A stretch of 59,401 nt of DNA, the filler included, from Dugesia japonica (lineage: Eukaryota), in NCBI GenBank assembly GCA_001938525.1. It is 5 parts of 5 records of this genome, joined end to end, with 100 filler letters (N's around TTAATTAATTAA, not from the genome) between each part and the next. Parts side by side here need not be neighbours in the genome. Positions count along the whole stretch, not along the records: positions 10,082 to 19,346 come from MQRL01567775.1; 4 more parts are not named here. One strand, 5' to 3'. The first letter of the stretch is position 1. Each line of letters opens with the position of its first letter. Shown here one piece after another: positions 400 to 29,575 of the stretch. The notes beneath the pieces are model-generated. The model made no database searches. It saw nothing but the letters and a program-made list of their open reading frames with translations, and was not told where the DNA came from. The position numbers and the translations under genes were made by a program.

Positions 400-1780
400 G
401 CTTTTTTTGGGTACCCCCCAGAAAATTTTTTAGCTTCCTTCATAATTCATTTTTGGTTGGGAATTTTTTCAGTGAGGTCAATTTTTGATTGATTCAGGTG
501 AATTTGGTCAATAATTTGCTTGGTGATATCGAATTAGGTGAATTTTTGACTGGTTTAGAGTAATTTTTGAGTTATTTGATCAAATATTTCCTCAGAAATG
601 GTTAAGTTGGTTAATTTTTGGGTGATTCGGTCAATTATTTACTCGGTTTAGGTAATATTGGTCAATTATTTCTTCGAGTTTGATAATTTTTGAATATTTC
701 GAATATTTCCTCGTGAATGGTTAAGTTTGTTAATTTTTGGGTGATTCGGTCAATTATTTTCTCGGGTTTGGTTAATTTGAGTAATTTTTGGGTGATTTTG
801 TCAAATATTTGATCGGGAATAGTCATTTTGGGTTAGTTTTGAACGATTTATTCAATTATTTATTCGGTTTAGGTAATATTGGTCAACTATTTACTCATGA
901 TTGGCATTTTGCGTGATTGCGTAGAATATTTTCTCTGGATTGGTATTTTTGAGTAAATGGATCGAATATTTCTTTGAGATGGTCAATTTGAGTAAAAGTA
1001 GGGCGAATCGGTCAAATTTTTACTCAGGAATGGTCAGTTTCGTTAATTTTTGGATAATCTTGGTCAATTATTTACTCACAAGGGATCAGTTTTAGGTGAA
1101 TTTGAGTGATAATTTCCTCGGCCTGGTGAGTTATGGTAGAATTTTAAGAAAATTCATGCGAAAAGTCGAATTGGTTTAAATTTTCATGTGTTTTTAATTT
1201 TTTTTTGGAATCCGGGTGAGCAGTCTATGTTGGTTAAATAATATGAAAGTTTTTAAAATTTTTAAATGAATTTTTTATGGGAATCCTGAACCTCCAAAAT
1301 TTTGAAAATTTTTGAAAACAATTTTGTCGAGATTTTTACATCAATCGATACAGAATTCGATGGAGATTATTTTTCACAAAAAAAAATTTTCGAAAAAATT
1401 ATTTCGCGTTTTTTGATAAAATGTGTTAGATAGAGAAATTTTCACTGATTCCTAATATATAAACCTAAAATCCCTAAAGTATATCCGAGATGAAATAAAT
1501 CTATTTTTGACTATTTTAGATGATAATTTAATTTTCATTGGTATTTTTTCTGACTTATTGAATTTCTCACTGTTTGCTGGTCTTCAGTGATCAGTGATTC
1601 GCACACTGTGCACTGGATTTCAGTGTTCTGATGAAAGAGCACTGGATTTCAATCATCACTCTTCTGCTCATTGTGTACTGGTTTTCCCACTTTTTGATAG
1701 TCTTCACTCTTCACTAGTGGTTAATATACTTTTTAATTAATATTTAATTATTTAACCTGTTCTATATTTTTTACTTTTAA
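400..1780 (-). repeat. Dispersed ~2-kb non-autonomous repeat with internal degenerate minisatellites (copy 1)
   Basis: Reverse complement of 33006-35230. GGTCAATTATTTACTCGGTTTAGGTAATATTGGTCAA (~629) matches ~34260, and CTTCACTAGTGG..TTCTATATTTTTTACTT (~1710-1776) matches ~33006-33073. Confidence 0.75.
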
Positions 1781-2334
1781 TTTGAAATTAAATTTGATTT
1801 AGTGTATTTTTTTTAATAAACTGATCTATTTTTATCTTAAAAATCTAATCAAAATTTTATTGATAATATGAAATTTTTATTAGGATTGATTCATTGAAAT
1901 AATTTCTAAACATTCATTGAAAATAATCCATATAATTGATTGAATAAATTAAATATGATGAATTGATTAATTTTCAATGTGTGATTTGATTAAAACTTTG
2001 CTTCTGCGAGTAAATTGAATTACGTTTTGAATAAATTTTTAAAGGTAATTTTGAAAATAAATTTGAAATTTTTTTGGATAAATTAAAATTATAATAGCAA
2101 ATTTATTAAGTATTGAAAATTTTGAAAAAATGTTTTAATAGTAATTTTGAAAATAAACTAGATTTCATGTATATATGAATAAATTTTAAATTTTTACGGT
2201 TAAATTAAAATTATAATATAAAATGTTTATTAAGTATTGATGAAATTTTGAAGGTTTTTAATTAAATATGATGTTATGTGTATTTTTAATTAATGTTTAA
2301 TTTATAATAGAAAATTTTTATTAAGCATTAGAAA

Positions 2335-3350
2335 GATATTCGGAAGAATGTTACAAGAGATTTGAAGAACATTACGAAAGAATATTTTAAAAACAATTTT
2401 GATGTTTTCTATCAACAATGTATTTCAAGTCATGGATGAATTACTTTTTCGGTCACATGTTGTATTTAACTAAGTTTAGAAGCTAATAGAGCCAATCGAA
2501 AAGTTGCAAATTTCTATTTCAACGATTTAGTCTTTAATTGGTTCATTTTTAAAAATAATGATTAATTTCTAGTTATATTTTTGTATACTTGTTTTGCATG
2601 TGCACGTATTTTTTATAGTAGATTGGTCAGAAAAATAACTGGAACCAATAAAAATTCATGAAAAGGAAGAAAAGAACAATTTATATGTTATATGTATAAT
2701 TAAATGTAAATTATTGTAAATGGTTTTTACTTATTAATAAATAAAGTTGTGTCATAATTGTTATCTTAATCAAATATTCACCGTTACATACATTCATAAA
2801 CATCGTCGTACCATACAGGGTCGTCCAAGATAATAATCCAGTTTATTTAAATTGGAAATTTTTATAACGTAGATATCATATTTTCAATAGATTTAGATGA
2901 AAAGATCAGAAAATAAGATTTAGAAAGAAGAATTGTTAGAGAACTTTTTTGATTGACCAAATTGATTCAAATTTTTAATAAATTAAATAAACAATTATGA
3001 TATTTTTTAGAAATATTAAGAAGTTCGAAACTCTAATTAAATCAAGTGAGTACGTTTTAAAAGAAAAACCTTTTGGTTAGTATTGATATTTTTCAATTAG
3101 ATATAACTCGTTATACAATTATAGCACAAAATATACCATTCGATGATTGTATTCAAAATTCATCAATTTTTGGTTCATAAATGTTTTTCGAGAAAACCAA
3201 TTTCATTTCTGAAGAGTCCGTGTGCTTAAAACTACTAAAATGATAACAGCGGTCAAAATGGATATCATTACAGGTTGTTTAATGCCAAATGTTTTTGAAA
3301 GATGTTTCATTGAAGATCAATATCATATGAACAGTATGTGGAATAGGTTT
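2335..3350 (+). repeat. Degenerate duplicated segment (copy A), possibly a decayed multi-exon gene
   Basis: Colinear blocks shared with 5000-5650: CGGAAGAATGTTACAAGAGA, AATCCAGTTTATTTAAATTG, ATGTTTTTCGAGAAAACC..TCATTACAGGT. Confidence 0.6.
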
Positions 3351-4091
3351 ATGTACTAGTTATATTATTACAATAGTTATAACTAGATTATTGGTGCTTT
3401 ATTATTGACAATTTTGTAACTAAAATTATTTGAATTTAATCTGTTTTCTTTTCAGGTATTTCAGAGAATAATAATTTAAATACAGATGAAAGAAAAGAAT
3501 TTGGAGAGAATATAAGAGTAAGAGAAATTGGAGTTTGTTGCATAACGCGCCTGTGCACAATTAAGAAAATTATTGAAACCGAATTTGGTTTTATCTTACC
3601 AATATTTCTTAAAAACCATGCTTCGATTATGTAAACGAAATACGTTTTATTTATGATTTTGTTAATTTCTTACAAGATCAAAAATCCAGTAGCAATTATT
3701 CATTAAACTCAAATTCATAAGACTTAGAATTTCAAAAAATTCAACTTAGCAAAATTTAAAGCAATCAGATTAATTAATTTAGTTTTTCTGGGTTGTACTA
3801 GATTATATTACCTTATATTATTTATCAATGTTATATTATCAAAAGAAATTTTACTCTTAAAAATATTTAAATTAAAGATAATTATTAAAAAATATAAACA
3901 TATAAATCAAAGATACAAATTATATATTAAGGCTGCCAGGGAACATCATGATTCTAAAATTAACATGGTGGACATCATAATTCATGGTCTACTATCATAA
4001 ATTATAAAACATTTAATCCACTTATGCATACGTCCTAGAAGTTTAAAAATTTTTAATATATTTAGTAAAACATATCGATTTCTAATATGTT

Positions 4092-4274
4092 TTCAGTGAT
4101 TTCTCCGGCACGTTTGTTAACATCAACTTCGGCCTTTTTGCAAACAACATGGGCAAATCTTCTACCAACACCTCTAATAGCTGTCAAAGCATAAACAATA
4201 GTTCTTTGACCGTCAATATTAGTATTCATCACACGAAGAATGTGATTGAATTTTCGGGGCATAATTAGCGACAT
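4092..4274 (-). pseudogene. RPS18: 40S ribosomal protein S18 (uS13), 3'-truncated pseudogene fragment
   Basis: [61 protein letters not shown] is the N-terminal part of S18. Homology stops abruptly without an obvious donor, followed by a stop; PEKF is altered to PRKF. Confidence 0.85.
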
Positions 4275-4374
4275 GATTGAAAATAAGTTCAAAAATTTTT
4301 ATTTATATTTGTATATAAAAATTATCTTCAAAAACTTTGTACAAATTGCTTCGATCTAAATAAAAAGAGAAAAA

Positions 4375-4411
4375 GAGATGTTTCGGACAAATCTATGCCC
4401 ATCATCATCAG
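4375..4411 (-). ncRNA. Degenerate Penelope-type minimal hammerhead ribozyme motif
   Basis: Minus strand CTGATGA-TGAT-GGGCA-TAGATT-TGTCC-GAAA-CATCTC. Stem II is formable; stem I partner is absent. Confidence 0.35.
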
Positions 4412-4999
4412 TTACTGTTTGTAAAATAAGAGAGGAAAGTGTTTATATACTGGCCAATAAAATTTGTTNCGTAATCAATACAATGAAATAATATTAAAAT
4501 AAAAAGTGAATGTTTGGCAATCTGAGTATAAAATTGAAAAAGTTTGTTGTTAGATCATGCAAGTTGATAGGCAAACAAGCATCACCGATGAGTTTACAAT
4601 TTTGAACAGCGGTTTTCGTAATTATTTTGAAAGAGTTTGATTCCCCTTGAGATCCACTTGATTTCAATGTGACAAACTTTAATTAATTTGATTTGTGGAG
4701 TTTTATATCGTTTTCTAGGGGTTTTATTGAATTACATTGAATTGTTTTGAGTTTTACAGATTTTATAAGATTTTTATCAAATTTACTGAAGTTTTTAATA
4801 AATAAATGAAGAGGTTTTAATTGGTTCATAAACGCTGTAGAAATCAACCAATACTGTTTCATTATAAGTTTTGATAACGAAAATTTTATATTACATACAA
4901 AAATTCAAAAAACAAAAAAAAATTTTGATCGAAGCTTTTTTTTTAAAACGGATTCACATATTATTCACAAAGGATGATAATTTTATGAGGTGGAAGATT

Positions 5000-5650
5000 T
5001 TCGGAAAAATGTTACAAGAGAATTGAATAACATTTTGAAAGAAGATTTTAAAAGCAATTTTGATATTTTTTCCTTCTCAACTTGTATTTAACAGAGTCTA
5101 AAAGCTAATGAGCCAATCGAAAATACAAGTAAAGGGGAAAGAATTTTTTTTTTAATCGTTTTATTTAATTTTATACTATTTTTTTGTATCTTTCATAAAA
5201 GTAAGTTTTGTGAAAATAATTTAGTTTTTTTNGTGGCAGACAGAAATTTTAACAGTAAGATTATTTGAAATGCATTTTTCCTAAATTTTGTATTTGTAAT
5301 GGTAAATAATCGTGCATATAAAATATTTTATCTGAAACATTCATAAAGAACACGAGAATTTAGTACGGTCAGTCATAGCAAGTAATCCAGTTTATTTAAA
5401 TTGTAAATTTTTATAACGTAAACAATTTGTATATTGTAAAATATTTCAATTTACAACAGATTTAGATGAAAAATATAAGAAAATAAGAATTGTTCGATTA
5501 ATTCTTTTTATGTAAATGTTTTTCGAGAAAACCGATTTCATTTCTGAAGAATCTGTGGGCTCAAAACTACTTTTACACAGCATTCAAAATAGATATCATT
5601 ACAGGTCGTTTAATGCCACATGTTTTTGGAAGATGTTTCATTGAACTTTG
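5000..5650 (+). repeat. Degenerate duplicated segment (copy B)
   Basis: Direct-repeat homology to 2335-3350. Confidence 0.6.
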
Positions 5651-7044: not shown

Positions 7045-7976
7045 CGACCCGAAATTATAACTGATTGCATTAATAATCTAGAATGCAATCTCTTGTTGTG
7101 CTTCGATTGGAAAAATTTAATGCTTATAATTATCTAATTTGATAATTATAGTTTGGTTTGAGGATTCTATAGTGAATTTCTTGGACTTAGTATTATTTTC
7201 AAAAAAATTCTATTAAATTTGAAGTATTTTTCTATTATTTTAATAGGAATTTTGAAAAGTTCATAGAATTATTTGTAATTAATTTTTTGAACAGTTGATT
7301 TCAACAAAGTGAATCCTCCATTTAAATCCAACAGCGATGAAAACGTGATTAACTATAATAATATGAATGCCAAAATGAAAATCAACTGTGAAGATTCATA
7401 ACAACAATTGAATTTATGTGAAATGTATTATAAATGAATATTTAATAAAAAAGATTGCTTCTAGTGAAATTTGTAAATGGTTAATTAAAATCGCTATCAA
7501 ATCTGCTGGTGTCACTCAAACTCCCGAATTCCTGCAAATTCAAAACAGTGGAACCAGATCCTCCTGATATGAAGCTACCATTTAACTTTATAGTCAAACA
7601 GCAGGATCAACATCTGAGAAACAAATCATGAGTGGTTAAAGGAGATCCATGTTACGAGAGATCTGGCGATTTTTGTAATTTATTTAATTTATTAATGGAT
7701 TTTTAATTAATTTATTAATTACTAAATTTGATCTTAAAAGTGTATCTGATAATGTGGAAAAAAAGTTTGTCGAGATAATTTCTACCAGGTGAACAGTATA
7801 TTTAGTTATAAAAAACTCTACTTTCACATTACAAAAACATTTTTCAGTAATTTATAAATGAATTATTTAAATTAATGAATTATTTAAATTAATTAATTTA
7901 ATTATTAAGTTAATTATTTATAAAAATTTAAAAATGAAAATAGTTATATAAAAAGCACATTTCAAAATTAACTTAC

Positions 7977-8686
7977 CGAATCGACAATTTTCTCTGCTCC
8001 ATTTCCAATTGACTAATTAGATCGATTTTATTAAATACTATAACATCAGCAAGAGATATTTGTCTAAATTATTTAACAATAAAATAAAAATCAGATCTAC
8101 GAAGCTACCTAAGGCATTCATTTATTCCTTCATTATCATTATTTTCAGACATCTGTTTATCTATGTAAAATCCATCAACTACTGTAACAATTCCATCCAA
8201 GTATAAATCGCTACATAAACTATCATCTAACCAAAAAATAGATGCAATAGGTCCTAATTAAATTAAGCTTTAATATTTCACAACCAAATTAAACCTGGAT
8301 CTGCTAATCCAGTTGTTTCCAACAAGATATAGTCAAATTTTCCTTTCTTTTTCATTAAACTTTCCAAAGCTTTAACTCCAACATCTTTAATAGAACAGCA
8401 AAGGCAACCATTCAACAATTCTAACCATTCTTCATACAAAACACCATTATCTTTTATATTTTCATTTATTTCGATAGCTGATCCAGATCCAAATTCATTC
8501 AAAATGACAGCAATTTTTTTCCCATGATTTTCATTTAAGATATAATTTAATAATGTTGTTTTTCCAGATCCTAAATTGTTATTCAAAATATTATATTCTA
8601 AAATATTCACCAAGACATCCAGTTAATATAGTAACGGGCACTTTTTCATAAGGTATCAAGAAAGGAATGTCTTCCATATTGTCCAT
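7977..8686 (-). CDS. CBWD1: COBW-domain / ZNG1 zinc metallochaperone GTPase, exons 1-4 (8686-8611, 8570-8295, 8253-8109, 8063-7977); 3' exons not seen
   Basis: [11 protein letters not shown]|SGKTTLLN Walker [11 protein letters not shown] (GCxCC), [45 protein letters not shown] introns of 40, 41 and 45 bp keep the frame. Confidence 0.93.
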
Positions 8687-9465: not shown

Positions 9466-10025
9466 GTATTATGATATATTATCCACGACAAGTTATTTTG
9501 GTTATCTGTTTGTTAGCTTAATCAAATACTTTATGTTATATTTACTCAGTTCAGTAATTTATATTATTTTATTGTTAATATAATTTATTTGTGTGTTGAA
9601 AAGGATTTATAGACTTCAAGAGAGTCTGCCGAATTGTATGGTGACATTTGGGGTATATGCGTATGTAGGACGCAAAAATGAAAGTAGAATTTCGTGTAGA
9701 AATAATTTAGGTATACTACAAATAAGAATAAAATAATAACGAAATCAACAGTTAATTAATGAACGTTTATTTATCAAACTGTTAGGGTTGTAAGCTATGC
9801 TTACATTAATTTACCTAATTTATTAATTTATTCATAAAATTTTATTTAATTTATTAAAAATTTCTAATTGTTTAAACTTATCAATTTATTAATTGTTATC
9901 TTATTTATTTATTATTGTTGGGGTGAAACACCGGATTAAGGAAAAAATAATGGCGTAAGTAGACACGGAATTCGAAAGATCNNNNNNNNNNNNNNNNNNN
10001 NNNNNNNNNNNNNNNNNNNNNNNNN

Positions 10026-10037
10026 TTAATTAATTAA
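10026..10037. other. Artificial scaffold linker TTAATTAATTAA inside an N run (also 19391-19402, 32387-32398, 44150-44161)
   Basis: Identical 12-mer with stops in all six frames, each flanked by 44 N on both sides. Confidence 0.95.
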
Positions 10038-10158
10038 NNNNNNNNNNNNNNNNNNNNNNNNNNNNNNNNNNNNNNNNNNNNATTATTATATCTTTATGTC
10101 GATTTGCATTATTAATATCATGGTTATTAATATTATTATTGCTAGTATGATTATTTTT

Positions 10159-10300
10159 GGGGTTCCACCCGAGTTGGATGGTAAGAAAATAGTGGCTGGG
10201 GAAAAACAGCCCTCAGGGGAACCCGTTCAAGAATTTTACCTACCGCCCCTAGGGTAGGTATTCAGTTCATGGCGGTTGATCTCTCTCTTAATGGGAGGTA
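10159..10300 (+). ncRNA. Conserved multi-stem structure at the element tip (copy 1)
   Basis: Stems GGGTTCC/GGAACCC, GGCTG/CAGCC and TACCTACC/GGTAGGTA, with compensatory changes relative to copy 2. Confidence 0.6.
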
Positions 10301-10410
10301 CACACCCATAAACCTTTGTATTCGGGTTCATTCTTTTCCCTAATATTAGTAGCAAAAAAAAAGAAAAATACGATATTAAATATATACATTTTATTTCATA
10401 AACAAAATTA

Positions 10411-10793
10411 TTATAGCGAATCCAGCGCCCCTGGATCTAACCACTGGGCCGGATCGGTCGCTGAAAAGTTAAAGGTGGCGGTATCGTCATTATCGTCCTA
10501 TTGAATCCAAGTCGGATTGCCTATTTGGCAGGAGAGATCGGCGATGTATTGTTTAAGAAATTCTATCTTGCAGTGTAAAAGTTGTTTCGTCTCTGTTTCT
10601 AAAGCTTTGGTTTGAGCCACCAAGTCGTTCTGCTTCTTTACGATCAGGTCTAACCTCTTTATCAACCTGTCCCTCTGAGACAAATGCTTAAGCAGAGCCC
10701 GGTCAGTCTTACGCTTCAAATGCCTTTCTATCAGGAGTCGGCGCATGATGCGGTGGCATCTACGGAGGTTATTGGGAAAATTGATATGAGGCA
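10411..10793 (-). pseudogene. Cassette ORF D (copy 1), basic/coiled-coil protein with acidic Trp-containing tail; one premature TAG
   Basis: Ungapped, about three-quarters identical by eye to 16156-16550; TGG>TAG at 10498-10500; homology starts at ccAG|TG. Confidence 0.8.
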
Positions 10794-10924
10794 CTGGAAA
10801 ATAAAATAGGTTAAATATATCAGCACTCGACCATAGATCTCAAGCAAACATTAAAGCAATAATGGAATTCATAAGAAAAGTTGAATAATAAGTTTATTAA
10901 CAAAGAGAAAATATTTCCCTAGAA

Positions 10925-11283
10925 TTATCTTCTAGGGGTCTGGGTGCCCTTCTCGACCATCAATGGCTCGAGTGGGATTTTATCCCGAAGAAGCAAAATG
11001 TCGCCAACCAGTTTATTTTCTCGGTCATGGTAGGACCGGATCATCTCTGAGAAAGACTCTACTTGTCTTTTCCAAATGTGTTCTTGGGAATGGGAGGCTT
11101 CCGCTTACCTTTTAAAGAGGGCGCATTTTCTCTTATAGCGCAGGACTTTACTGTTGGCTGTGGCTATTTCGGCTTCCCACCGGCGTTTGGCCAACCGATA
11201 TAAATCCCAAGTGAGTTCAAGATCCTCACTGGTATCCCGGAATTTCTTTGTAGGGGCTGGTTGGCGGTTGGATGAGGAATGCA
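10925..11283 (-). pseudogene. Cassette ORF C (copy 1), helical protein ending in KGTQT; one premature TAA
   Basis: HSSSNRQPAPTKKFRD...RLAKRRWEAE...ENKLVGDIL...VEKGTQTPRR* is homologous to 15666-16025; stop at 11105-11107. Confidence 0.8.
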
Positions 11284-11515
11284 CTAATAAAAATATATAT
11301 ATATCACGACAATAACTTTCATAACTTTAAATTTCTAAAAAGACACAGTAGACACAAATTTGGTTTGTTAAGTGCTAGACCACCCAAATTGACTTATAAA
11401 CTTAGAAAACGACATGTGAACGAGGAAAAAATAATCTCTAAAGAATTACACAGAACATCGAACATTTATTTTAAACAGGGTCATCACGATAAGTTCAATA
11501 GGTTGCACACATTAT

Positions 11516-11872
11516 TTACTGAGGAGGAGTGGATGAGTCCGGCACCGGTGCGGTATTTTCTGAGTCTACGCTACCCGAAGGCTCTCTTATCCCGCAGAGC
11601 AGGTTAGAGATAAAAGCCTGAACTGCGGGAGCTGGGAGTGGCATCGCAGGCTGGTATTGTAAAGGTGTTGCCAGAGTGCGTACAGGGCCTGTCCAGGCTC
11701 GGTATTGTTGACGCTCGCTAAAATCTTGGATGCGAGCCACAATCGACTCTACTGGGGGCAGATTTGATCAGTCGACCAAGATGCCCGCATCACGGTTATG
11801 GGGGTTGTGATACCGCCGGAAAATTATTCGACGGGTTCTTCTATCATCAACACGTTCCCATATCGATTCCAT
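11516..11872 (-). pseudogene. Cassette ORF B (copy 1); one premature TGA
   Basis: MESIWERVDDRRTRRIIFRRYHNPHNRDAGILVD*SNLP is homologous to the N-terminus of 15083-15493; starts ttAG|AATG. Confidence 0.72.
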
Positions 11873-11983
11873 TCTAAAATTAACGGGAATTCGGTTTAAT
11901 TATAACCTATAACCATCTTTTTAACTTAATTAACATTAATAGAAATAAACAACAAATAGAATTGATCAAATCAATAGTTTATT

Positions 11984-12202
11984 TTAGACAAGCAATGGTC
12001 CGATTACACTTCTACTGAGGAAGACGTTTTCTAAATCCGCTGAAGACACTAAAGGGAACATCTCCGCAAAACAGCAAAGGTCTGTTTTATCCGGGTGTTC
12101 AATCCTCCTCTTAGTCAATAGGTGCGCGATCAACTGTTTTAATCGAGTAGCTCGACGTTGTCGCCTTATCCATCGAAGGGTATGACACAACTCGGCCGGC
12201 AT
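11984..12202 (-). CDS. Cassette ORF A (copy 1), 72-aa basic protein of unknown function
   Basis: RLKQLIAHL...IEHPDKTDL..FAEMFP is shared with 14741-14973; starts ttAG|TTCATG. Confidence 0.72.
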   Translation of the reverse strand: MPAELCHTLRWIRRQRRATRLKQLIAHLLTKRRIEHPDKTDLCCFAEMFPLVSSADLENVFLSRSVIGPLLV

Positions 12203-12429
12203 GAACTAAATAAAAGAAGAACACATTTTTTATATCATCACTTGTGATTCAGTCCCTTAAAAAGCGGAACAATTAGTGCAGCCAGATGATATTAATAGAA
12301 AACCGCTATATCAGTCCTCTGAACAAGTTTAATTTAAATTCATCACTGATTATTGAGAAACTTGTCCAGGTTCATAACCCTCGTAATAAAGGTACTATTT
12401 CTGATCTTACTAAGGATGCTACTCGCCAA

Positions 12430-12961
12430 AAAAACGTTAATAACAATCATAACAACAATACGAGTCATAATATTAGTGCGGATACTACTCATAAGGTAGA
12501 TAGTAAGGGCAATAATAGCAATACAGAATTATTAATAATTTTAATAGTAATAGGGCGATAAATCATACTAATGATGATAATGTGAATGACGTCGAAAATA
12601 TAGTTGAATAAACGGGTCACTGATATTCAAAGTAATAATACAATTATTAACAATGACAGCAATAATATTAGCAATACTAATAATAGTAATGATAATCATA
12701 ATACAGATAATAATAATGGTACTAATAATAATATTGATAAGGGTAATGGCAACATTAGTAATAANNNNNNNNNNNNNNNNNNNNNNNNNNNNNNNNNNNN
12801 NNNNNNNNNNNNNNNNNNNNNNNNNNNNNNNNNNNNNNNNNNNNNNNNNNNNNNNNNNNNNNNNNNNNNNNNNNNNNNNNNNNNNNNNNNNNNNNNNNNN
12901 NNNNNNNNNNNNNNNNNNNNNNNNNNNNNNNNNNNNNNNNNNNNNNNNNNNNNNNNNNNNN

Positions 12962-13035
<74 letters not shown>
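12430..13035. repeat. (AAT)n microsatellite, degenerate to perfect, inside the LTR-like element; contains an N gap
   Basis: Direct sequence. Confidence 0.9.
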
Positions 13036-14740
13036 CGTAAAATTAAAATTTTTTCTCCTTTTAAATTCTTGCGCGTCATCGTTGCTTGGCGATTCCCCCC
13101 TTGGTAACAGATTGAATTAAGTTATTTTAAATCGGTGTTTGCCATATTATGTGTGCATTTTATCTAGGTGCGTGTGTTTATTTTGTTGGTCTAGCTCCAA
13201 CTGCTATATGTGTGTATGGCGAAGTTTATTTAATCGATGTGTCCTCTAGTTGCCTAACTATGAGGCAATGCAAGAGTGTGTATATAGAAGTTAGAGTTGG
13301 ATGTCGTGTATCAACACTGGGGGTTTACTAAATTTGTAGGATCTTCCTCACACCTACTATGGAAAAGGAACTGGGAAAACCGTAACGAAAGGAATTTTAA
13401 CACACCTATTTACTATTCTGGCAATTCATAATATTCACCATTTTATCATATAGAGGAGGTTTAATTTAATTACTTCCACTGCTAAACGAAGCTAGTCACT
13501 CTTCACAAAATCAATGCCACTATTGTAGAACGGAAATTTAGCGGACTGTGACCTGGTCATAGATATTATTGGAATTTTCTCGTTGGAATTTATCCTATTG
13601 TGAGAATATAATGAGTTATGAACCTATTGCACAGTCAGGGGTGAGTTATGAGTTACAAAAAAAAATTTCTTATTTCGGTTACTTATTTGATCCAATTATC
13701 AATGGAGTGAAACTCTCGTTTAGTTGGCTTATAGAATAAATAACTGACTTAAAAATTTCTTGTTTTTTATTATTATCTATTTATTATCAAAGAATTATTA
13801 AACATAAAACAATTTATATTTACCATATTTATTATATAAATCAACGTATAAATAATAACACCAAACTTTACTTTTAATATAGAGTGATGATTCTGCAACG
13901 AGGAGTGATAGGAATGTGGGAGAATCCAAATTCAACGTAATTCTCGGCTTTCTAATTTCTTTCTTCGATTTTCACTGGTAAAACGATCTTTTTCTCTACA
14001 ACGTGGTATTAATTTCTAAATGTTAAAGTTTCTAGTAATTTCTATCTTACGAGTAATATTCTGATATTGAGTCGCCAAATTTCTGCTCACTGCAAGATTT
14101 TTCCACAATTAATATTAGGATAACATAGTGGATAGTTGACTTTGCAATTTATAATCTTCGAATTAAGTCGTAATGATATAAGTTGATTTCGTTTTTTTTG
14201 TAGTTTTTTCGTTACTTTCTCTGGGGGTTTAAATAGCTTCCTGAATACACCCCTTTTAATTAATCTATTTTTTTTCTTTATAATTAATTATTCTGGTTAA
14301 TCATTTTCTCGTTATTAAATAATAGTTCAGTAATTTCCTTGATTTGATATTCTCAGTACTCATTTATCAGCTTTTCTTAGATTGTTCCTCTCGTTATTAA
14401 TTTTCTACCTGATTTCGTTTTGGTATTTGTAATACCGTATTATTCCTTTTTCTCTTTAGGGTACTTGTTGGTAGTGATTATCTAGTTTCCTCCTTGACTG
14501 GTTGTTTCGCCCCAACATTATTAAAATCGTCATTATTGGTAATACTATCATAAATATTGTTAGGCTTACCATCAATTCCAGTAGTTACTAATCACTATTG
14601 AAGCCGTTTATTTATTTTATAGCTCAAGAGGATTTTAAGTTGATAATCGTGATTAAGACCAAACGTCCTCGAATGCTAAATGCTCATTTTATAGACGTAT
14701 TAAGTTAATGATGGTTTTAAAATTCAAAATTATTTAGAAT

Positions 14741-14973
14741 ATGACCACAGAGCTGAGCATCATGTTATCCGGAAGCCGTAAACAACGTAAGGTTTATCGA
14801 TTAAGACAGTTGTTGGCGCACCTTTTCTCCCGAGGTAAAATAGAACATCCCGACGAAACGGATTTAGCTTTTTTCGCGGAGATGTTCCCCTCGGTGACTT
14901 CAGTAGATATTGATGGGGAAAAAGTACTCTCTTAGGTACGAGTACAAACATTCAACCATTATTACCTGTTTAA
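14741..14973 (+). pseudogene. Cassette ORF A (copy 2), frameshifted near the C-terminus
   Basis: RLRQLLAHL...IEHPDETDL..FAEMFP; the tail IQPLLPV* (cf. IGPLLV*) is in a shifted frame; starts ttAG|AATATG. Confidence 0.72.
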
Positions 14974-15082
14974 CATAAAATTTAAAATTGAATAGTTATG
15001 TTTGTGTTCTTGTTTTACTTTTAATTGTTTTACCTTAAAGAAATCATAATTTAAACAAATTTCTGGTTTATCTACTTATAGA

Positions 15083-15493
15083 ATAGAGTTCGTATGGGAA
15101 ACACTATACGATCGCCAGACCAATAAAGTCGTTTTTAAAAGATACTGAAACCCCCATGATCGTAATGCGGGGGTTCTCACAGAATATTCTAACATGCCTT
15201 CCCAAAGAGAGTGGGCTGCAGCGCAGCGCCAAGCATTTTACGAATAGCGCGGACCCGACCATACGCAAGAGGTGCTCCATCGCACCACAATTATAGATCC
15301 CAAAACCAATCAGACCATTAGTGCATGGTGAGAAGGTTCTGCATTCTTACCTGTATCGGCAGAGCATCTACCACCCAAGTCTGGAATAGATGTTGATCAA
15401 GGTAATACGTTATGGGAACTACGAAACCAGGCCGTAGGTGGAACCTCCGAAAATTTTAATAATGTTGTCACAGGTGGAGCTCGAGTTGGCTGA
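15083..15493 (+). pseudogene. Cassette ORF B (copy 2), ATG>ATA and three in-frame stops
   Basis: EFVWETLYDRQTNKVVFKRY*NPHDRNAGVLTEYSNMP aligns with copy 1 ORF B; starts atAG|AATA. Confidence 0.68.
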
Positions 15494-15665
15494 TCTTTGA
15501 AATCTCATTTCCCACTATTTCATGATAAATATATGTTTCCTCTGTATTTCTACAATTATTCCACTATTTTTAATACCTACATTAGGGAATTGAGTGTTAA
15601 ATTGTTAAGTTCTATCGTGTTTTCCGCTTTTGACTAATTGTGTTATAACACTATTTAATTTTTAG

Positions 15666-16025
15666 TGTATTCTTCTTTAAATCGGGCTGTAGCGCCTACT
15701 AAGAAGCTGCGAGAATCCAGTGACGATACAGAAATCACTTTGGACCTTTTTTAGGCTCGCAAAGCGCCGTTGGGAAGCCGATACTGCGACCACCGAGGCT
15801 AAAGTTAAACGTTATAGAAAGAAATGTTTGGAATTTAAGAATGAAGCCAAGGCATCTCACATCCAAGAAAGGGTTTGGATGACCCAGTTAGAAATGCTCA
15901 CTGAAATCATCCGTTCCTACCAAGACCAAGAGAATAAACTGGTTGGTGATATTTTAAGAATACGAAAGGCAATGCCTTCTGCACCATTTATGGTGCATAA
16001 AGGAGTCCAGACATCACGGTTGTGA
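15666..16025 (+). pseudogene. Cassette ORF C (copy 2), +1 T in a homopolymer at ~15750
   Basis: YSSLNRAVAPTKKLRE...RLAKRRWEAD...ENKLVGDIL...VHKGVQTSRL*; starts ttAG|TG. Confidence 0.78.
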
Positions 16026-16155
16026 ATGTTGTTCAACTCTTTAATGATAATAAATAATTCTCTTTTCGACTCAATGTTTTCAGATGATTCTTTCGTTTAG
16101 GTTCAATATATTATTTTAACTTAAAATAAATTAGAATTAATGTCATCATATTTAG

Positions 16156-16550
16156 TGCCTCGAATTACTTTCCCTAACAGTTTGAGACGTTGCCACCGAA
16201 TAATGCGTCGATTATTAGTAGAAAGACACCTTAAACGCCAATCAGATCGTGCCCTCTTGAAGCATCTTTCTCAGCGCAACCAATTGATTAAAAAATTAGA
16301 TTTGATCGTTAAAAAGCAGCATGATTTGGCAATTCAATCCAATAATTTAGAGGAGCAGACTAAACAGCTGCTTCTGAGAAAAATAGATTTCCTAAAACAA
16401 AATATCTCTGACCTTTCGCGTCAACTTGGGAACCCGACCTGGGTGCAGTGGGATGACAATGATGACCAAGCAACTTTTGACTTATTAGTTACAGACCCAG
16501 CCCAGTGGTTAGACCCCGGTGCTCTGTACGAAATGTATTTATTGCAATGA
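16156..16550 (+). CDS. Cassette ORF D (copy 2), intact ~131-aa basic/coiled-coil protein
   Basis: Open frame, homologous to 10411-10793 with mostly synonymous codon differences; starts ttAG|TG (the in-frame ATG at 16140 is not shared with copy 1). Confidence 0.8.
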
Positions 16551-16634
16551 AATATGGTCTAAAATTATGTTTTGATTGGTTTATTTGTTAATATAGTAAG
16601 GAAATAAGGAACCCAAAATAAAGGTGTATGAGTG

Positions 16635-16780
16635 AGTACCTCCCGTAAAGGTCGAAGGTCAACCGCTCTGCCCCGAAGATCTAACTTAGAGACGTTAGAT
16701 TAAAATTCTTGAAGGTGATTCCCTGAGGGCCGATTTTCCCCGGCCAGCGTTCTTTTTACTATCAACTCAGGTGGAACACC
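16635..16780 (-). ncRNA. Conserved multi-stem structure at the element tip (copy 2)
   Basis: Stems GGTGTTCC/GGAATCACC, CCTGAG/CTCAGG, GGCCG/CGGCC and ATCTAAC/GTTAGAT. Confidence 0.6.
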
Positions 16781-17092
16781 AACATTTATACTTGCTTCAA
16801 AGACGTATGTTTCCAACTCAATTTTTAAGAGTTTACACAATGGAGAATCAGTGAAAATCCTTTCTATGATTTTCTAAAAACCATTTAATGGTTTTGAATT
16901 ATTTTTCTATACCTTACAGTTATTTCAATTTCAAAATCCAATTTAGAGATCTACAAAAATCTCGTTCAAGCTACGTATTTCTCCATCTTTTCATAGTCTT
17001 TATTGCTTTTATGAAGAATAATTAAAAAGCTCATTTTGAAGGTATTAAATAGTATTTCTAATTCACAAAATTTATCCACGATTGCTTTAGTA

Positions 17093-17890
17093 CAGTCATG
17101 GGCAAGTTGAGACCCACAGACCACAATCATATTTCGAAGAGAAACAATTTTTTTAAAAATTAAATTTGGACAATAAACTTGTAAAATTAATATGATTGAA
17201 AGGCTTGAAATATGGACAACTCATTAATTTCTTTCAAAATATTGAATCTGAGTACACAGATATTTCTTTCCAGAGGGAAATTTGATGGCTCAGTTAAAGG
17301 AAAGTGTTTCGTAGAGTATGAAATTTAAAATATGACATCATTCTATTTTTGGAAATGAAGAATATTGTGAACTTTCCTGGATTAAGTGATAATGACTGGC
17401 TTTGAGATTTTGCATTGACTCTGGGCATAGTGAATCACCAAAATACTTTTTACTCCGTGTTACATAAAAAAAATTTATTTTCTAATAATATGGTGAAAAA
17501 TTTAAATGGATTTCAATTAAAACTCAAATTGTTTCTTCAACATTTATTGAATAAAAAGTATACTATTTTTCAACCATAAAGTTGTTAAAGAAACCTAAAA
17601 ATAAATTTTAAACATATGTAGTTATCAACGCTTTGAGTGACAATTTGGACAAANACTCTGCGACTTGTTTAACTTTTAAAACACTGAAACAAATTTGGCA
17701 AAAGTACACGATCCATTTTTAATAGATTTTGCTAAATTCCGAGTTAGTTACTGTTTGAAATGATAGATCTGAAGTGTGATTCTGATTAAAGGGAATCGAA
17801 CCTCCGCAAAGAAATCTGTAAATTTTTAAAAGTTCGGGCCAAATTAAAGATTTATTTCCTATGGTTATTTTTGGATCAACTTACAGCTGA
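17093..17890 (+). mobile_element. Degenerate hAT (SPIN/GTF2IRD2/EPM2AIP1-like) transposon
   Basis: IESEYTDISFQREI*WLS*RKVFRR...LFLEMK...FPGLSDNDWL*DFA; TIR-like start CAGTCATGGGCAAG. Confidence 0.75.
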
Positions 17891-20089
17891 TGATTCTCAT
17901 TAATTATGATAACTAATATAACTAACAAAGAAAATGATCTTTCGAATAGATAAACAATGTAAATTCAAAGTTTAAAGTGACAAGTATACAATTACTATAC
18001 AATTTTGAATGTCCGAAATATAGGTTGACTGATATATTTTAAGTATTTTTAGGGTTGTATGCTAGGCTTACATATTTTAATGAGTTATAAAATTTAATGA
18101 TTTTTTTTAAATTTTAAAGGGTAAACTAGAATTAAACTAAAAATTAGTAAATATTATTTTAATTAAATAAAAATAAATCTTTTATAAAAATTACTTATTT
18201 TAGATATTGTGATTTTAACTATTAATGTAATTAGAAATGATCGTTTTTGGTAAATAAGAATTCACAAAATCTACGCATAGTTTTTATGCAAATTTTTTGT
18301 CAACAAAAGAATTGATGCATAATTTTATGCAAACTTACGATTTTCGAAAATGGTATAAATACTGATTTCAAAATCAGTGTAACAACAGAGAGTTAAAAAA
18401 ATTTATTGTAGCTAATATATAGCAGTGAAAAAAAATTATTATTTTTTTTAGCAGTTAAACCTAATATTATAGCTAAATTTAGCAGTTTTTTAGGTAAATT
18501 ATAATATTTAAAATTTTCATTTTATTGAGTGGAATAGTAAAAATCAGTTATTGATTATTATTATTTCAAAATAAGTATCTAAGTAATAACACAGTGGTTT
18601 AAACACTTATTTATTAGTTGTTTAGTTGTTATAAAATATCGTCCCAAATTAATTAAGTGTGGTTTGGAAACGAGGCCCACCATTCTGCTCTTATCAGGCC
18701 GGTATTGTAATGCCGGTATTTATCTTTCTATTAAAATCACTATATAGCGGTTTTCGTTAATACCTAAAATTAATCAACCCTTGTGCAAATTGTAATTTTT
18801 ATTTGTAAATTATAGTTGATTTATCTTAATAAAGTTTATAAAATATAAAATCGTTCTCTTAGTTATTTATTGTTATTATTATATCAAGTTATTTATATCT
18901 AATTAATTAATTAAATACCTACACGCATCTTTTAAAGCAAAATTTGGAGTCAGTAAATAAATTTTTATTTCTTACCCACGAGATCTAACAGTATTTATTA
19001 AGACAAAATAGTAAATATGTAATGACTATACAATATTTAAATGTATGAAATTTATAATGACTGATATATTATTAAATAAATATACTGAAATGGATAAGTA
19101 TATGATTACTATAAAATTTTGAATGTCCAAATATTATGATATATTATTCATATGCGAGTTGACATAAATTTGATGACATTAGCAAAAATATACAATTATT
19201 GACGATGATAACTGATGGTTTTTAAACTATTGTAGCTATTAGTTAAATTTAAAGTCTCACAAGTCTCCATAATTTTTTTATTGATTATTACAAGTCTTTT
19301 CTTAAAAATAAAAATATGAAATAACAATTCACAAATTTCAAACAAANNNNNNNNNNNNNNNNNNNNNNNNNNNNNNNNNNNNNNNNNNNNTTAATTAATT
19401 AANNNNNNNNNNNNNNNNNNNNNNNNNNNNNNNNNNNNNNNNNNNNTTCCTCTTATTTTGCACCATTTCCCATCATTTACCACTATTTAGCTATATTTAT
19501 GAATAAATGGTAAAATTTCCCTTATTTTAGTAAAATTATATATATTTTAATAGTGATGATACAAATTCAAATTCAATTACTTACAATAAGATATATATAT
19601 GTATATTAGATTTAAAATAACGGAAATTTTACTAAAACTATTCAAAAAATTACTAAAATAAGTGACAATTTACTAACTGTTCTTAAATTTAGCTATATTT
19701 ACTCTATTTTGCCATAGTTTCTTTATTTTTTAATGGGTTTTAATGCATATTTTCACTTCATATTTTCAAAGATCTCACTTCACTAATCTTTAAAGAGTGT
19801 CATATATTGATAAAAGAAGACAATAAGATTGGTGATAGTGAGTAAGAGTTGATATGACATGCTTTTTATTTAAAATAATGAAACTATTTTAGTATATTTT
19901 AGTCGTATAATTATCCTTCTGCTTCATTTCTTGCTCATTGGCATCCTTGCTTGCTTTTTGGTTTTATGGGTTTCTTTTTCCTTTTGATAGCCAATATTTA
20001 GAGACATTGTTAGAAAAAAGACTTCAATATAGAAAATAAGTATCTCAACATTGAAAATATTAGTTTCAATAGATAAAATTAAGGTCCTA

Positions 20090-23529: not shown

Positions 23530-25720
23530 ATCAACGAGTTCTTCCCTTTCTTGGCATTTTCATGTGACATTCGACATTGCACACATACCTCACATTTTGG
23601 TCTAGATAACGTATCTGCATTAGCATGTTGAATTCCTTTTCTATATTCCAAAATCATATCTAATTTGCTCAGATAATTAATCCATGTCTGGAATTGCGAC
23701 GTAATTGGTTTCTTTGTCGTCATCATGAAAGTTAGAGCTNNNNNNNNNNNNNNNNNNNNNNNNNNNNNNNNNNNNNNNNNNNNNNNNNNTTTGTGATCTG
23801 TTCTAAGAGTAAATCTTCTACCATACAAGTAATGTTTGAATTGTATACAGAAATAATAAACAGTTAATAACTGTTTCGTGTAATGCAGCATTCTTTTTCA
23901 TGAGTTGTCATTGAGTGTGATCCATAGGCAACAACTCTTTCTCTTCCTTCTTTATCTCTCTGTGACAATACTGCTCCAATTGTATCGAAATTGGCATCCG
24001 TATCTAATATAAATTCTTTGTTTATGTCCGGAAAACACAATATTGGTGCAGTCATTAGAGAATTCTTTAGACCATGAAAAGTATCGTTTATTTCATCTGT
24101 CCATTCTAATTTCTTGTTGCTTGGTCCGCTACACAACTGCTCTAATATNNNNNNNNNNNNNNNNNNNNNNNNNNNNNNNNNNNNNNNNNNNNNNNNNNTA
24201 TTTCATCTGTCCATTCTAATTTCTTGTTGCTTGGTCCGCTACACAACTGCTCTAATATCTTTAATTTTCTTGGGTAGTTTTCTATAAACTTCCTGCAATT
24301 CCAAACAAATTCCCAAAAAACTTCGTAATTTCTTCACGCAGTTAGGTTTGCCAAATGTTCTTATAGCTTCTATTTTAGACGGATCAGTTCTAACACCATC
24401 ACTGCTAATTATGTGTCCAAAAAACTTGATTTCACTTTGAAGAAACTGACATTTTTCCCGATTAATTTTTAGACCAGCCTTCAATATTTCCGTCAATACT
24501 CTTTTAATTACTTCTTAGTGTTGGTCTTTATTGTTCGTAAATATCAGTATGTCATCAAGATAGACCATGGCTCCATTGATTCCGCCTACCACNTTTGTCA
24601 TCATCTCTTGAAATGTCCCTGGTGCCGCTGCGATGCCAAATGGATTTCTATTAAAACAATATTGCCCGTGTTTCGTTGAAAACGCTGTTTTTTCTTGAGA
24701 TTATTCTTCGAGCTCTATTTGATAGTATGCATTTCCAAAATCTCTTGAACTGAAATATTTTGCTCTATCTAACTTGTCCAGCATTTCATCGACATTAGGC
24801 ATCGGAAAGGCTTGTCTTTTCGTTACTGCATTCAATTGTCTGAAATCCAAACATATTCTTATGTCTTTCTTTTCCTTTTTCAAAACACATATCAGTGGAG
24901 TATTCCATGGAGAGTTGCATTTCCTGATTATTCTCGAAAAGGTTTTGGATAGCTTCTTCAATTTTAGATTCTAAGTTCATTGGTTGTCTATATGGTTTTA
25001 CATTGATTGGTTCACCACTTGTGATTATTTTGTGTCTTGTTAGATGTGTGCGTCCTACATCCCATTTATCTGCCATAAAAGCATCTTCTTTACTTTCAAT
25101 TATTTTCACTAACCGTTGATTCTCTTTAATATTCAAGATATTTAAACCTCTTTTCAATCGCTCTCCTTTTTTAATTTGTCTCCCAAATTTCGTTTCAATA
25201 TTACAATTATAATTTTCGACTTTTTCATCCGTTTTGCTATTGAATTTTCACATTTTTGGAATTATCCAAATAACCTCTACATTCCTCCTATCAGATCTGG
25301 TGTCACTCTTTAAGCAACTAAAAAAGTATCTCTTTGCAAACTTCATCAATTATCACTCCGGTTTTAACTTTCCCAACAATTTCAAGTGTATTATTATTTG
25401 CACAACGCAATCTTTCATCACTCATTTCTAAATTTCCTTCTCGTAATTTATTAAAACAAGTCAAACTGATCACATTAATTCGAGCCCCTGTATCTAATAG
25501 ACATTCTACTTTATTTCCTTGAATTGATACCGTAACACTTGGTCTGCCTTGCAATTTATGGTACGAAGTATTTATTTTCTTTCCTGCTTCAACTGTTCCA
25601 ACCTATTCTACTTTTCTATTATTTGCAAAATTTTCACTCTTTAAGAACCTGTATACTTTTTCTGTAACTTTTCCTATATCATCCAACTTTTCGACTTCTT
25701 GAGGATAATACCTAACTTCA
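23530..25720 (-). mobile_element. Degenerate Ty3/Gypsy LTR retrotransposon (gag end, protease, RT, RNase H)
   Basis: CLLDTGA protease motif, RICLDFRQLN, VYLDDIL (~24550-24567), FILDTDA..IGAVLSQ, YLYGRRFTLRTDHK; multiple frameshifts. Confidence 0.93.
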
Positions 25721-26598
25721 TTTAACAATAGATGGCACCAACCAAGAGAAATGATCATTGAATAGTATTTTAAAAATCTTTATCCAGAATTAACTCAATT
25801 TCTATTGGCTCAAAATTATTAAATAATAATTATTTCCTCATAAGAATAAAGCTTTGAAAATCTTTAAGCTTTGAACACAAATAACTTGAAATACACTTTG
25901 TTAGGTAAATCTTCAATTGGTAATTCATTTTGTAACTCACAACTAATATTTTTAGACATCATTTATTTCACTACTACTCTTTTTGATTTGTTAGTTATTT
26001 CATTTATTATTATAATAGATTTTATAGAAATGAGAGATTTTAGCGTTGAATTGTGTAAATATGTAAATAATTATATTCACAGTTTGTTATGAAAATTTAT
26101 AACTAATATATGAGTCTAATGTAATAGGTTTAATTGATTTAATAAGTTTAACGGTGATTATTTTACAGAGTAAGATAATTTAGAGGATCTACGGTATATG
26201 AATGTGTTGTATGGATTGATTGATGTATTGTAGTTAATTGTATGAACAAATTCATTATATGGTTTTAATGTATGTATTGATTTTTTATGATTTCTAGTAA
26301 ATTCAAGTAATTGTTCAACGAGTTCTATGTAATTTGAAAACATTTACCAACAAGAATAAATAAGATCATATAAACATCTATAAAAACCATAAAAAATACA
26401 TACAAATTTTACAAATCATGTAAAACAAACCCTTATTTTGCTTAGTATATTTTGTATACTTGCACTCATGTTGCATTGTCTTTGTTCATGTATTGTATTA
26501 GATGTAATTATTAAATAATTATTAATGACGTAAATATATTTGGAAATTTAAATATATTGATTTAATAATATTAGTATTTCATAATTTCTAAAATTTTA

Positions 26599-28189: not shown

Positions 28190-29430
28190 GCAATTCGGTA
28201 AAAGTTGGAGTCAATGATCAAAAATTCACATTTATGGTAGACCAGATCCCAACTCTTTAAAAAAGTGAAAGACTTGGTCGATAAAATTTTAGCAAACGGG
28301 GGAAAAACGAAAAAAACTCTTGTCAAAAATGCTAATAATTTGTGCAGATAGTACAAAAAGCAGAAGAGATAATCATACGAAAATTGGAGAAAGTAGAAGA
28401 TTTAAAAGAAACGTTATCATTAGTTGAAGAAATAGAAAGTAGAGAACCTATTAACGTAGTAAAGATTTACGTGGGTGTAACAAGTGAAGAACGTACCTGA
28501 GAAAGGAGACAAAATTTCGAGAGAGTTACGAAAAGAACAGAGCGACGGTGTTGAACATGCCAGAGTTATGGGCATACAAAATGAGTGTCCAAAAGGTTTA
28601 CAAGTGGAATGTTAGACTTACCACAAAAAAGGCCATTTAAGTAGAAATTGTCCAGACAAGAAACCACCAAAATGTTTTGAGTGTGGTAAGGTAGATCAGA
28701 TCAGAAGAATTTGCACAGAAATTGTATGTGGTAGATGTAACAGATCAGGTCACAGAGCGGAAGAATGTTATTCGAACAATAATAAAACAAAGACAAGAAG
28801 AAAGAAGACACCATTTTAAAAGCAAACAACAAACAAAAGATTGGAGTCGGACCAAACAAATCCATATCATGCGAGAAGAGCATAGTGATGAGAATGAAAA
28901 GATATTTTCTGGGAGCATATATAAAATGAAGATCCAAGCAAAGCAAACCCAAAAGGCAGGGCTCCATCAGTAGAGGTGTTGTTCAGAGTCATTCATTAAA
29001 CGAGATACCGTTTGAATTTCCTCAAGAGAACGAGAAATGGGATGAGACAAGTAAAGTGAGAGAAAATGCTTACATATTCCTAAAAAGAGGAAGTTTCAAT
29101 GATACGGAATTGAACAAAGCAAAAGTGATAGGAACAATTGAAGAGAAACAGAATGTAGAAATTTTGTATGATCAGATGCAAGGGAGACGTCGCCTTTCAG
29201 TGATGATCAAGGGTGAACACTTTGATTGTTTGTTAGCTAAAGTAGCAAGAATAATTGTAATGAGCATAAAAGGATTTAGTAGACTCGGAGAAACAATATT
29301 AGAAAAGACGAGGAACAATTGCTTTGCGTGAATAACAGCTCATTTGAGACAATTGGAAAGTTACGTGTGGAAGTTGTAGTTTCAGAGGTGTGCAAGGAAG
29401 TAACATTTATAATAGTAGAGAAATTAATGA
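28190..29430 (+). mobile_element. Degenerate Gypsy gag-protease fragment
   Basis: Several decayed CCHC knuckles (C.TCQSYGH, KKGHLSRNC, CFECGK, CGRCNRSGHRAEEC); MQGR..SVMIKGEHFDCLL parallels the protease at 25554. Confidence 0.82.
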
Positions 29431-29431
29431 C

Positions 29432-29575
29432 ATATCTTGATAGTATGCATTTCCCAAGTCTATTGATCTAAAATACTGTGCACTTTTTAAAGCATCCAGC
29501 ATTTCATCAACATTTGGCATAGAAAAACTTGTCTTTCTGTTATTGGATTGAGCTGTTAAAGTCTAAGCATAATCG
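29432..29575 (-). mobile_element. Gypsy RT fragment, inverted relative to the adjacent gag-pro
   Basis: QLNPITERQVFSMPNVDEMLD...IDLGNAYYQ. Confidence 0.78.

Follow-up and report, generated by a model that had tools for sequence, protein, structure and literature searches.

A stretch of 59,401 nucleotides of Dugesia japonica DNA (assembly GCA_001938525.1), referred to below as the window, consists of five parts of five records joined by 100 filler letters each, positions 10,082 to 19,346 coming from MQRL01567775.1. It contains two copies of a cassette of four small open reading frames (ORFs A, B, C and D), placed inside units that resemble the long terminal repeats (LTRs) of retrotransposons. 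It is moderately probable that the four ORFs are alternative last exons, each joined to a common non-coding leader; with its predicted final A, this leader would supply the first letter of the AUG start codon of C and D. At the level of sequence, the established part comprises conserved acceptor-like sites, selection acting from the TG onwards, separate stop codons, polyadenylation (poly(A))-like hexamers, LTR-type ends, flanking repeats and many copies. From these features we infer the use of the acceptors in splicing, a single leader for all four ORFs, a final A in this leader and a coupling of the choice of poly(A) site to that of the acceptor.

The cassette is present twice in inverted orientation, as copy 1 (14738-16784, plus strand) and copy 2 (12205-10156, minus strand), with about 68% identity in the best segments, in a context of AT-rich animal sequence with assembly gaps. 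Each cassette carries ORFs A, B, C and D in a row, with spacers of 110-232 nt between ORFs of the same strand, and every ORF start is found at most 3 nt from a T-rich YAG (Y, pyrimidine). The final G of the AG lies at 14737 (A), 15081 (B), 15665 (C) and 16155 (D) in copy 1, and at 12206, 11874, 11284 and 10794, respectively, in copy 2. All eight junction contexts quoted in the original prediction, made on the same DNA before this analysis, were found in the sequence. Relative to the acceptor, the exon phases are 0 for A, +1 for B and -1 for both C and D.

On the plus strand, copy 1 includes acceptor and ORF A at 14736-14973 (AG at 14736-14737, ATG at 14741, homologous end TAA at 14971-14973), B at 15080-15493 (frame from 15083), C at 15664-16025 (AG at 15664-15665, frame from 15665) and D at 16154-16550 (AG at 16154-16155, frame from 16155, 131 codons open). 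The corresponding minus-strand features of copy 2 are A at 11978-12207 (ATG at 12202, 72 amino acids, open; AATAAA at 11983), B at 11465-11875 (ATG at 11872; AATAAA at 11470), C at 10893-11285 (start at 11284, 119 codons; AATAAA at 10898) and D at 10390-10795 (start at 10794, 127 codons; AATAAA at 10395). In copy 1, the reading frame of A changes near 14915-14930, B contains three internal stops and no ATG where copy 2 has one, and C is frameshifted near 15751-54. In copy 2, B has one internal stop, C is interrupted by a stop at codon 60, with its first ATG at codon 81, and D by a stop at codon 99, with no in-frame ATG upstream.

The homology between the copies begins right after the AG, as had been predicted. 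In ungapped, AG-anchored comparisons, the identity of the 40 nt upstream is 0.30-0.42, which is chance level (expected 0.32-0.36), and that of the 45 nt downstream exceeds the chance expectation of 0.24-0.27 in all four ORFs (A 0.38, B 0.53, C 0.62, D 0.64). Moreover, with the real sites excluded, the spacers contain 17 acceptor-like YAG in 1444 nt, and for one copy the probability that each of the four ORFs would by chance have one within a 4-nt slot at its start is about 5e-6, by a criterion defined post hoc with the sites already known.

The most distinctive property of the cassette concerns ORFs C and D, whose conserved frame starts one base inside the AG, i.e. with the G of AG followed by TG (xTG), the genomic codon being GTG in four of four cases. 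The claim that this frame has no shared ATG was found to hold in both copies, with the qualification of an upstream ATG for D in copy 1, which is considered below. In D, the first ATG common to both copies is codon 17, and 13 of the 16 residues ahead of it are kept, nine of them through synonymous recoding; in C, 17 of the first 28 residues are kept, ten of them recoded. The 126 codons of D compared between the copies differ at 14 second and 82 third positions, with proportions of non-synonymous (pN) and synonymous (pS) differences of 0.17 and 0.96, the respective values being 0.27 and 0.78 for the 3' part of C and 0.32 and 0.72 for A. Judged by these substitution patterns, the codons of C and D ahead of the first shared ATG are evolving under protein-level purifying selection. 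Since an in-frame stop sits two codons upstream of the xTG in copy 1, C has no possible upstream ATG there; in copy 2 no ATG is found between the upstream stop and the xTG. Furthermore, of the 825 TYAG in the window, 52 (6.3%) have TG directly after them. With C and D unrelated to each other (hhalign probability 0.04), the chance that both ORFs would start in this way is about 0.4%.

Other members of the family were followed in contigs compared with copy 1, from run X3 for the region 13050-16900 and from runs X3 and X18 for 16105-16254; reads were compared with copy 1 only. For the latter region, 200 X3 contigs and 15 X18 contigs were available, with a variant table complete at a threshold of 8%. 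Conservation of the AG/TG junction across many copies was checked for D and is borne out: positions 16154-16161 carry no variant of at least 8%, and 16153 alternates between T and C (11 X3 contigs), giving the TAG/CAG pattern of YAG. After the junction, 12 of 22 third codon positions are variable. Contig depth across acceptor D (16145-16159) climbs from 746 to 1269 and 1592, and the contig loose ends at 16149-16154, among those listed, are A/T-rich. One X18 contig, which is unalignable before 16173, has a T tract, AG and TG at matching spacing, with different codons following.

The same data bear on the possibility that C and D initiate at GUG, either on RNA keeping the genomic G or via a leader ending in G. 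GTG is present in all four genomic starts, with no variant of at least 8% in the 200 contigs, and a G before the donor would be typical, G being the usual and commonest base preceding a splice donor. However, near-cognate start codons are inefficient in animals, the G is required by the YAG regardless, with Y alternating as in acceptors, and A and B have an ATG behind the same type of site. Initiation at GUG is thus considered improbable.

The downstream ends of the ORFs are also informative. The stops of C align between the copies and those of A (TAA at 14971 and 11986) align once the frame change of copy 1 is allowed, so the shared stop positions predicted for both ORFs were recovered; the stops of D lie 4 codons apart. 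Several spacers had been reported to contain AATAAA. In copy 2 the exact hexamer follows all four stops, 0, 45, 26 and 15 nt past those of A, B, C and D, but in copy 1 it is found within 56 nt of only one of the four, that of C (16049-16054, plus strand, aligned with 10898 of copy 2), and A and B are followed by one-base variants of it. The chance of an AATAAA within 56 nt is 5.7% per stop in resampled spacer, with a window size picked post hoc. No strong donor common to both copies was found inside the ORFs, and because of this they are read as last exons. The conserved acceptors, the coding from TG and the poly(A)-like signals past the stops all agree with the claim of four separate terminal coding exons.

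The acceptor-like site at each ORF start would also be expected if the four ORFs were exons of a single protein. This is hardly credible, given that the stops of A and C are aligned, that conservation reaches near the stops, that AATAAA is found past them, and that the ORF ends have no strong donor common to both copies nearby, the one aligned GT, close to the end of A, differing in phase between the copies.

A further alternative is an operon-like row resolved by spliced leader (SL) trans-splicing, with cleavage at each poly(A) site and addition of the SL at the next acceptor. The order of stop, AATAAA, short T-rich spacer and acceptor is indeed the geometry of an operon, and the spacers are below the limit of 300 bp applied to flatworm operon candidates (PMC12582326). 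Yet every flatworm SL reported in that text ends in ATG, which would be in frame with A but not with B, C or D, and no SL-like loose end was seen at the acceptors among the rows listed. The earlier judgement that a classical SL ending in AUG fits poorly, being in frame with ORF A only, is therefore upheld, and the operon-like arrangement appears quite improbable.

According to the proposed mechanism, one shared non-coding leader would be spliced to each of the four acceptors of the LTR cassette in alternative transcripts. The final A of the leader together with the TG of the exon would give the AUG of C and D, and a non-coding leader ending in this way would keep the ATGs of A and B usable. 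The choice of poly(A) site would be coupled to that of the acceptor, and unspliced or genomic RNA would be unable to yield C and D. One A-ending leader with four acceptors, as in the original prediction, remains the simplest single fit to all four phases, although no RNA junction is listed for it in the runs compared.

As to the origin of the leader, a donor had been placed 34-36 nt upstream of the first acceptor. The motif is present in both copies, as AA/GTTAAT at 14702-14709 on the plus strand of copy 1 (G at 14704, giving an intron of 34 nt before acceptor A) and as AA/GTGATG at 12236-12243 on the minus strand of copy 2 (G at 12241, 36-nt intron); by chance, the two copies would have an AA/GT at positions agreeing to within 2 nt with a probability of about 0.4%, for a pattern picked post hoc. 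Its use as a donor found no such support, the site being weak, the introns short and the similarity around it marginal, and it is possible but doubtful that the leader ends there. Alternatively, the donor may lie in the 5' region of the element outside the window, by analogy with gypsy env; the position of the cassette inside an LTR-like unit means that the leader can originate outside the window. Another donor-like sequence, the GTGAGT at 16632 of the terminal region, was discarded as leader donor since the preceding base differs between the copies. Additional acceptor-like sites are seen at 14622 and 14694 (plus) and at around 12320 and 12256 (minus), about 80 nt and 9-14 nt ahead of the candidate donors; they could bound an internal leader exon or a micro-exon, with marginal similarity between the copies.

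Several findings weigh against the proposal of a common A-ending leader. Both copies have decayed, and they are the only two full cassettes that could be compared. The exact AATAAA of copy 1 is limited to 23 nt past C (16049) and 66 nt past D (16617), and poly(A) sites within an LTR would need readthrough to yield genomic RNA. Against the nearby donor in particular, the similarity between copies in the 140 nt around the candidate sites is marginal (p = 0.053), A/GT sites at a similar distance also precede acceptor C in copy 2, and the candidate introns (34 and 36 nt) fall below the lengths of the three measured introns of the host (40, 41 and 45 nt), which belong to a CobW/ZNG1-like gene at 7970-8680 (minus) with the relaxed donors GTGAAT, GTTTAA and GTAGCT. 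In addition, the invariance of the third-position G proves little, because four of nine fourfold sites are equally invariant. No splice junction or leader-bearing end is listed in six RNA or possible-RNA runs of thin coverage, and at acceptor D the listed ends of X18 have an unspliced appearance, the status of X18 as RNA being a guess. Finally, an ATG at 16140 of copy 1 is in frame with D, five codons ahead of the xTG, and is lacking in copy 2; one X18 contig carries the same in-frame ATG, so that in one subfamily D could be initiated with no need for a spliced-in A.

This last finding is an argument for the use of genomic ATGs (16140 or codon 17 for D and later ATGs for C), some of them lost in the present, decayed copies, in which case the AGs would be incidental. 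The absence of an equivalent of 16140 in copy 2, the selection on the first 28 codons of C, which has no possible upstream ATG, and the end of homology at the AG make such an explanation very improbable.

The acceptors could also be real and the upstream exon coding, in phase 1, in which case C and D would share an N-terminal peptide (gag or a short ORF) and the xTG would be an ordinary Leu, Val or Met codon. The env genes of the ZAM, Beagle and idefix subclades work in this manner (bioRxiv 10.1101/2023.08.03.551782), and an ATG at 14673 of copy 1 is in frame through the 14704 donor. Copy 2, however, has a stop three codons ahead of the equivalent donor, a phase-1 leader would be out of frame across the starts of A and B, and the shared TG of two unrelated proteins (0.4%) would be left unexplained. 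A coding leader is for these reasons considered unlikely.

With regard to RNA, the raw runs were sampled at 6-26%, and for X17 and X18 the RNA nature is a guess. Splice junctions were looked for in X10, X11, X12, X14, X17 and X18, whose coverage is thin, and none was seen among the rows listed. A look-up of RNA data sets containing 13000-16900 listed none, which speaks neither for nor against transcription. Reads matching copy 1 number 3 in X10, 58 in X11 (54 of them below 90% identity) and 3 in X14, and mostly represent other subfamilies; for the region of acceptor D, X12 gave 0 reads, X17 two unrelated partial matches and X18 15 contigs. Since coverage is thin and the runs are partly sampled, splicing is neither demonstrated nor ruled out by these data. 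The X11 pairs at 16533-16790 have their first mate mostly on the minus strand (4.6 against 0.58; 3.74 against 1.36). This bias would mean RNA in the sense of the ORFs if the library were of the dUTP type, for few reads and with the bins of ORFs A and D mixed or opposite.

The units around the cassettes have the appearance of LTRs. The inner unit (10156-14517, minus strand, 4362 bp including a gap of 197 N) carries copy 2, starts with TGTTGGGG and ends with CCCCAAA, one base short of the inverted end. The outer unit has its left end at 9916-10155 (plus), with a TGTTGGGG start, two N gaps and the left flank ATTAT at 9911-9915, and its right part, which carries copy 1, at 14518-16784 (plus), ending with CACCAACA and followed by the right flank TTTAT at 16785-16789. 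On the plus strand of the window TGTTGGGG and CCCCAACA occur once each, at the unit ends 9916 and 14510-14517; both units thus have TG...CA termini with a short inverted repeat, the remaining ends being CACCAACA and the form one base shorter. The flanks of the inner unit, TTATT at 10151-10155 and 14518-14522, match at 5 of 5 positions, and those of the outer unit at 4 of 5. As these flanks consist of A/T only, the target-site duplications are modest evidence. The unit starts agree at 24 of the first 32 bases (shuffle p = 0.003), a score that one unrelated site of the window equals.

The features of a dispersed repeat, namely many related copies and a sharp boundary, were found. Summed contig depth in X3, which is not a copy number, is 1053-5555 over the conserved cores (core of A, 2935; C, 4715; D, 1053-1469; terminal region, 3826-5555), against 10 past 16791. 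No flank resembling a primer-binding site (PBS) or polypurine tract (PPT) was seen by inspection of either unit, so the inner unit is likely a solo LTR, and no gag-pol internal region is attached to either unit within the window. The arrangement is consistent with two solo LTRs that belong to the same family, one of them inserted in the A/T-rich part of the other, with the 5' half of the outer copy probably lost for the most part in assembly gaps. The host unit of the cassette is likely a 4.4-kb LTR of a high-copy retrotransposon, as far as its ends and copy structure indicate. Gingers and Polintons were dropped as candidates, as the inverted ends measure just 7-8 bp.

The conserved non-coding terminal 185 nt (16600-16784, plus) are 75% identical between the copies, show the highest contig depth and likely correspond to R-U5; given this resemblance the ORFs would fall in U3, although they may instead be antisense or in U5. 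A hairpin is predicted near the unit end (16722-16771, plus; about 10165-10222, minus), with a compensatory pair in the inner stem, C-G in one copy and T-A in the other. The window contains no Rfam families or tRNA genes. Decayed gypsy-type fragments with protease and reverse transcriptase pieces and a CCHC zinc knuckle lie at 24242-25780 (minus) and 28616-29468 (plus); no connection of these fragments to the LTR-like units was shown.

The proteins themselves found no relatives. In Pfam, no family reaches the cut-off for A-D, and A and C have no match below E 0.28 among PDB sequences. The two large protein library searches covered ORF D only: the search with the protein gave 13 candidates, none at E 0.01 or better, and a two-sequence profile of D against 1.84 billion representatives gave two matches, both of them repeat proteins aligning to the acidic tail. 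No usable match for D was found in the Atlas, nor were related loci found in viral or metagenome contigs. The viral fold search, which covered C only, returned no match at E 0.001 or better. AlphaFold predicts one long helix (8-91) with a low-confidence acidic tail for D, and a two-helix form with a TQT-like end for C. C and D are thus predicted to be soluble helices, and they may be adaptors acting on host proteins. The end of ORF C reads KGVQT in copy 1 (15999-16016, plus) and KGTQT in copy 2 (10937-10954, minus), which we take to resemble the [KR]xTQT motif bound by the dynein light chain LC8.

Elsewhere in the window, an RPS18 fragment at 4092-4274 (minus), a possible pseudogene, ends abruptly past about 60 codons, with no GT donor there, and a 3' exon of HADH lies at 31895-32266 (minus). 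The HADH and RPS18 fragments match various animals at 77% or less, with no close named match among the rows listed, and indicate an invertebrate-like host. A degenerate tandem-like repeat occupies 473-1509 and 33742-35161, inverted to each other, with 67-85% identity. Paired runs of 44 N are separated by a 12-nt palindromic spacer (10026-10037, 32387-32398 and similar), with identical letters at 10026 and 32387; such spacers are probably a scaffolding artefact, which would make the gap sizes unreliable.

LTRs are usually regarded as non-coding, and ORFs such as C and D are invisible to ATG-based ORF callers. If the proposal is true, a very abundant repeat is the source of four small proteins kept under purifying selection, D being without a relative in two large searches. 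Their expression would follow a logic of the complex-virus type, the presence of a start codon depending on splicing, and the split AUG would be extended from a single env gene to a multi-gene cassette. Tentatively, the LTR itself might even be seen as a four-gene virus-like unit in which one spliced-in A gates two genes, hundreds of solo LTRs acting as dispersed expression cassettes for four protein families without known relatives.

Partial counterparts are found in several known systems. The adenovirus major late unit, the accessory genes of the foamy-virus internal promoter and sag in the U3 of mouse mammary tumour virus combine, among them, a common leader, several acceptors, alternative poly(A) sites and accessory ORFs in or overlapping the LTR; they belong, however, to vertebrate viruses, their ORFs, as far as is known, carry their own AUG, and no sequence relationship to the cassette was found. 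In Epstein-Barr virus, the methionine that initiates EBNA-LP is created by alternative splicing (bioRxiv 10.1101/176099), but there herpesvirus repeat exons are merged into one protein instead of serving as alternative last exons. The tandem small accessory ORFs sORF1 and sORF2 of the Drosophila MDG1 group are likewise encoded by LTR retrotransposons with a poly(A) site in between (PMC11952523); unlike the cassette, they are found outside the LTR, upstream of gag, and are unspliced by long reads, and sORF2 is transmembrane, in contrast to the predicted soluble helices of C and D.

Similar in genomic setting are Burro and GYPSM1, giant gypsy-like LTR retrotransposons of planarians with thousands of copies and accessory ORFs, whose stated sizes imply multi-kb LTRs and whose host is also AT-rich (PMC6431247). 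Their hallmark is a giant Gag-Env-Pol polyprotein with BIR/BCL2/MATH domains, and the section on them in that paper describes a polyprotein and an upstream accessory ORF and no spliced multi-gene LTR cassette. The available parts of PMC8532177 and PMC11410931 contain nothing further on ORFs within LTRs. A spliced multi-ORF cassette inside such an LTR was not found in the literature searched, whose scope did not extend to the primary description of Burro or to Repbase.

A mechanistic parallel is provided by the env gene of gypsy, whose start codon is made of AT from a donor in the gag region and G from the acceptor (PMC2585583), and by the errantiviruses of the springer subclade, where it is likewise built by splicing (bioRxiv 10.1101/2023.08.03.551782). 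There, an ORF of an LTR retroelement has no ATG of its own and obtains it by joining to a leader, as is predicted for the cassette. In gypsy and springer, the junction is AT/G, concerns a single ORF of the internal region and has been mapped on RNA, whereas in the cassette, which sits within an LTR-like unit, an A/TG junction is predicted from sequence for two of its four ORFs, all without a known family; neither the AT/G phase nor, at the Pfam cut-off, an Env-F product is present. Splice-built start codons are thus already known, and what appears to be new, in the literature searched, is a four-gene LTR cassette that would use one.

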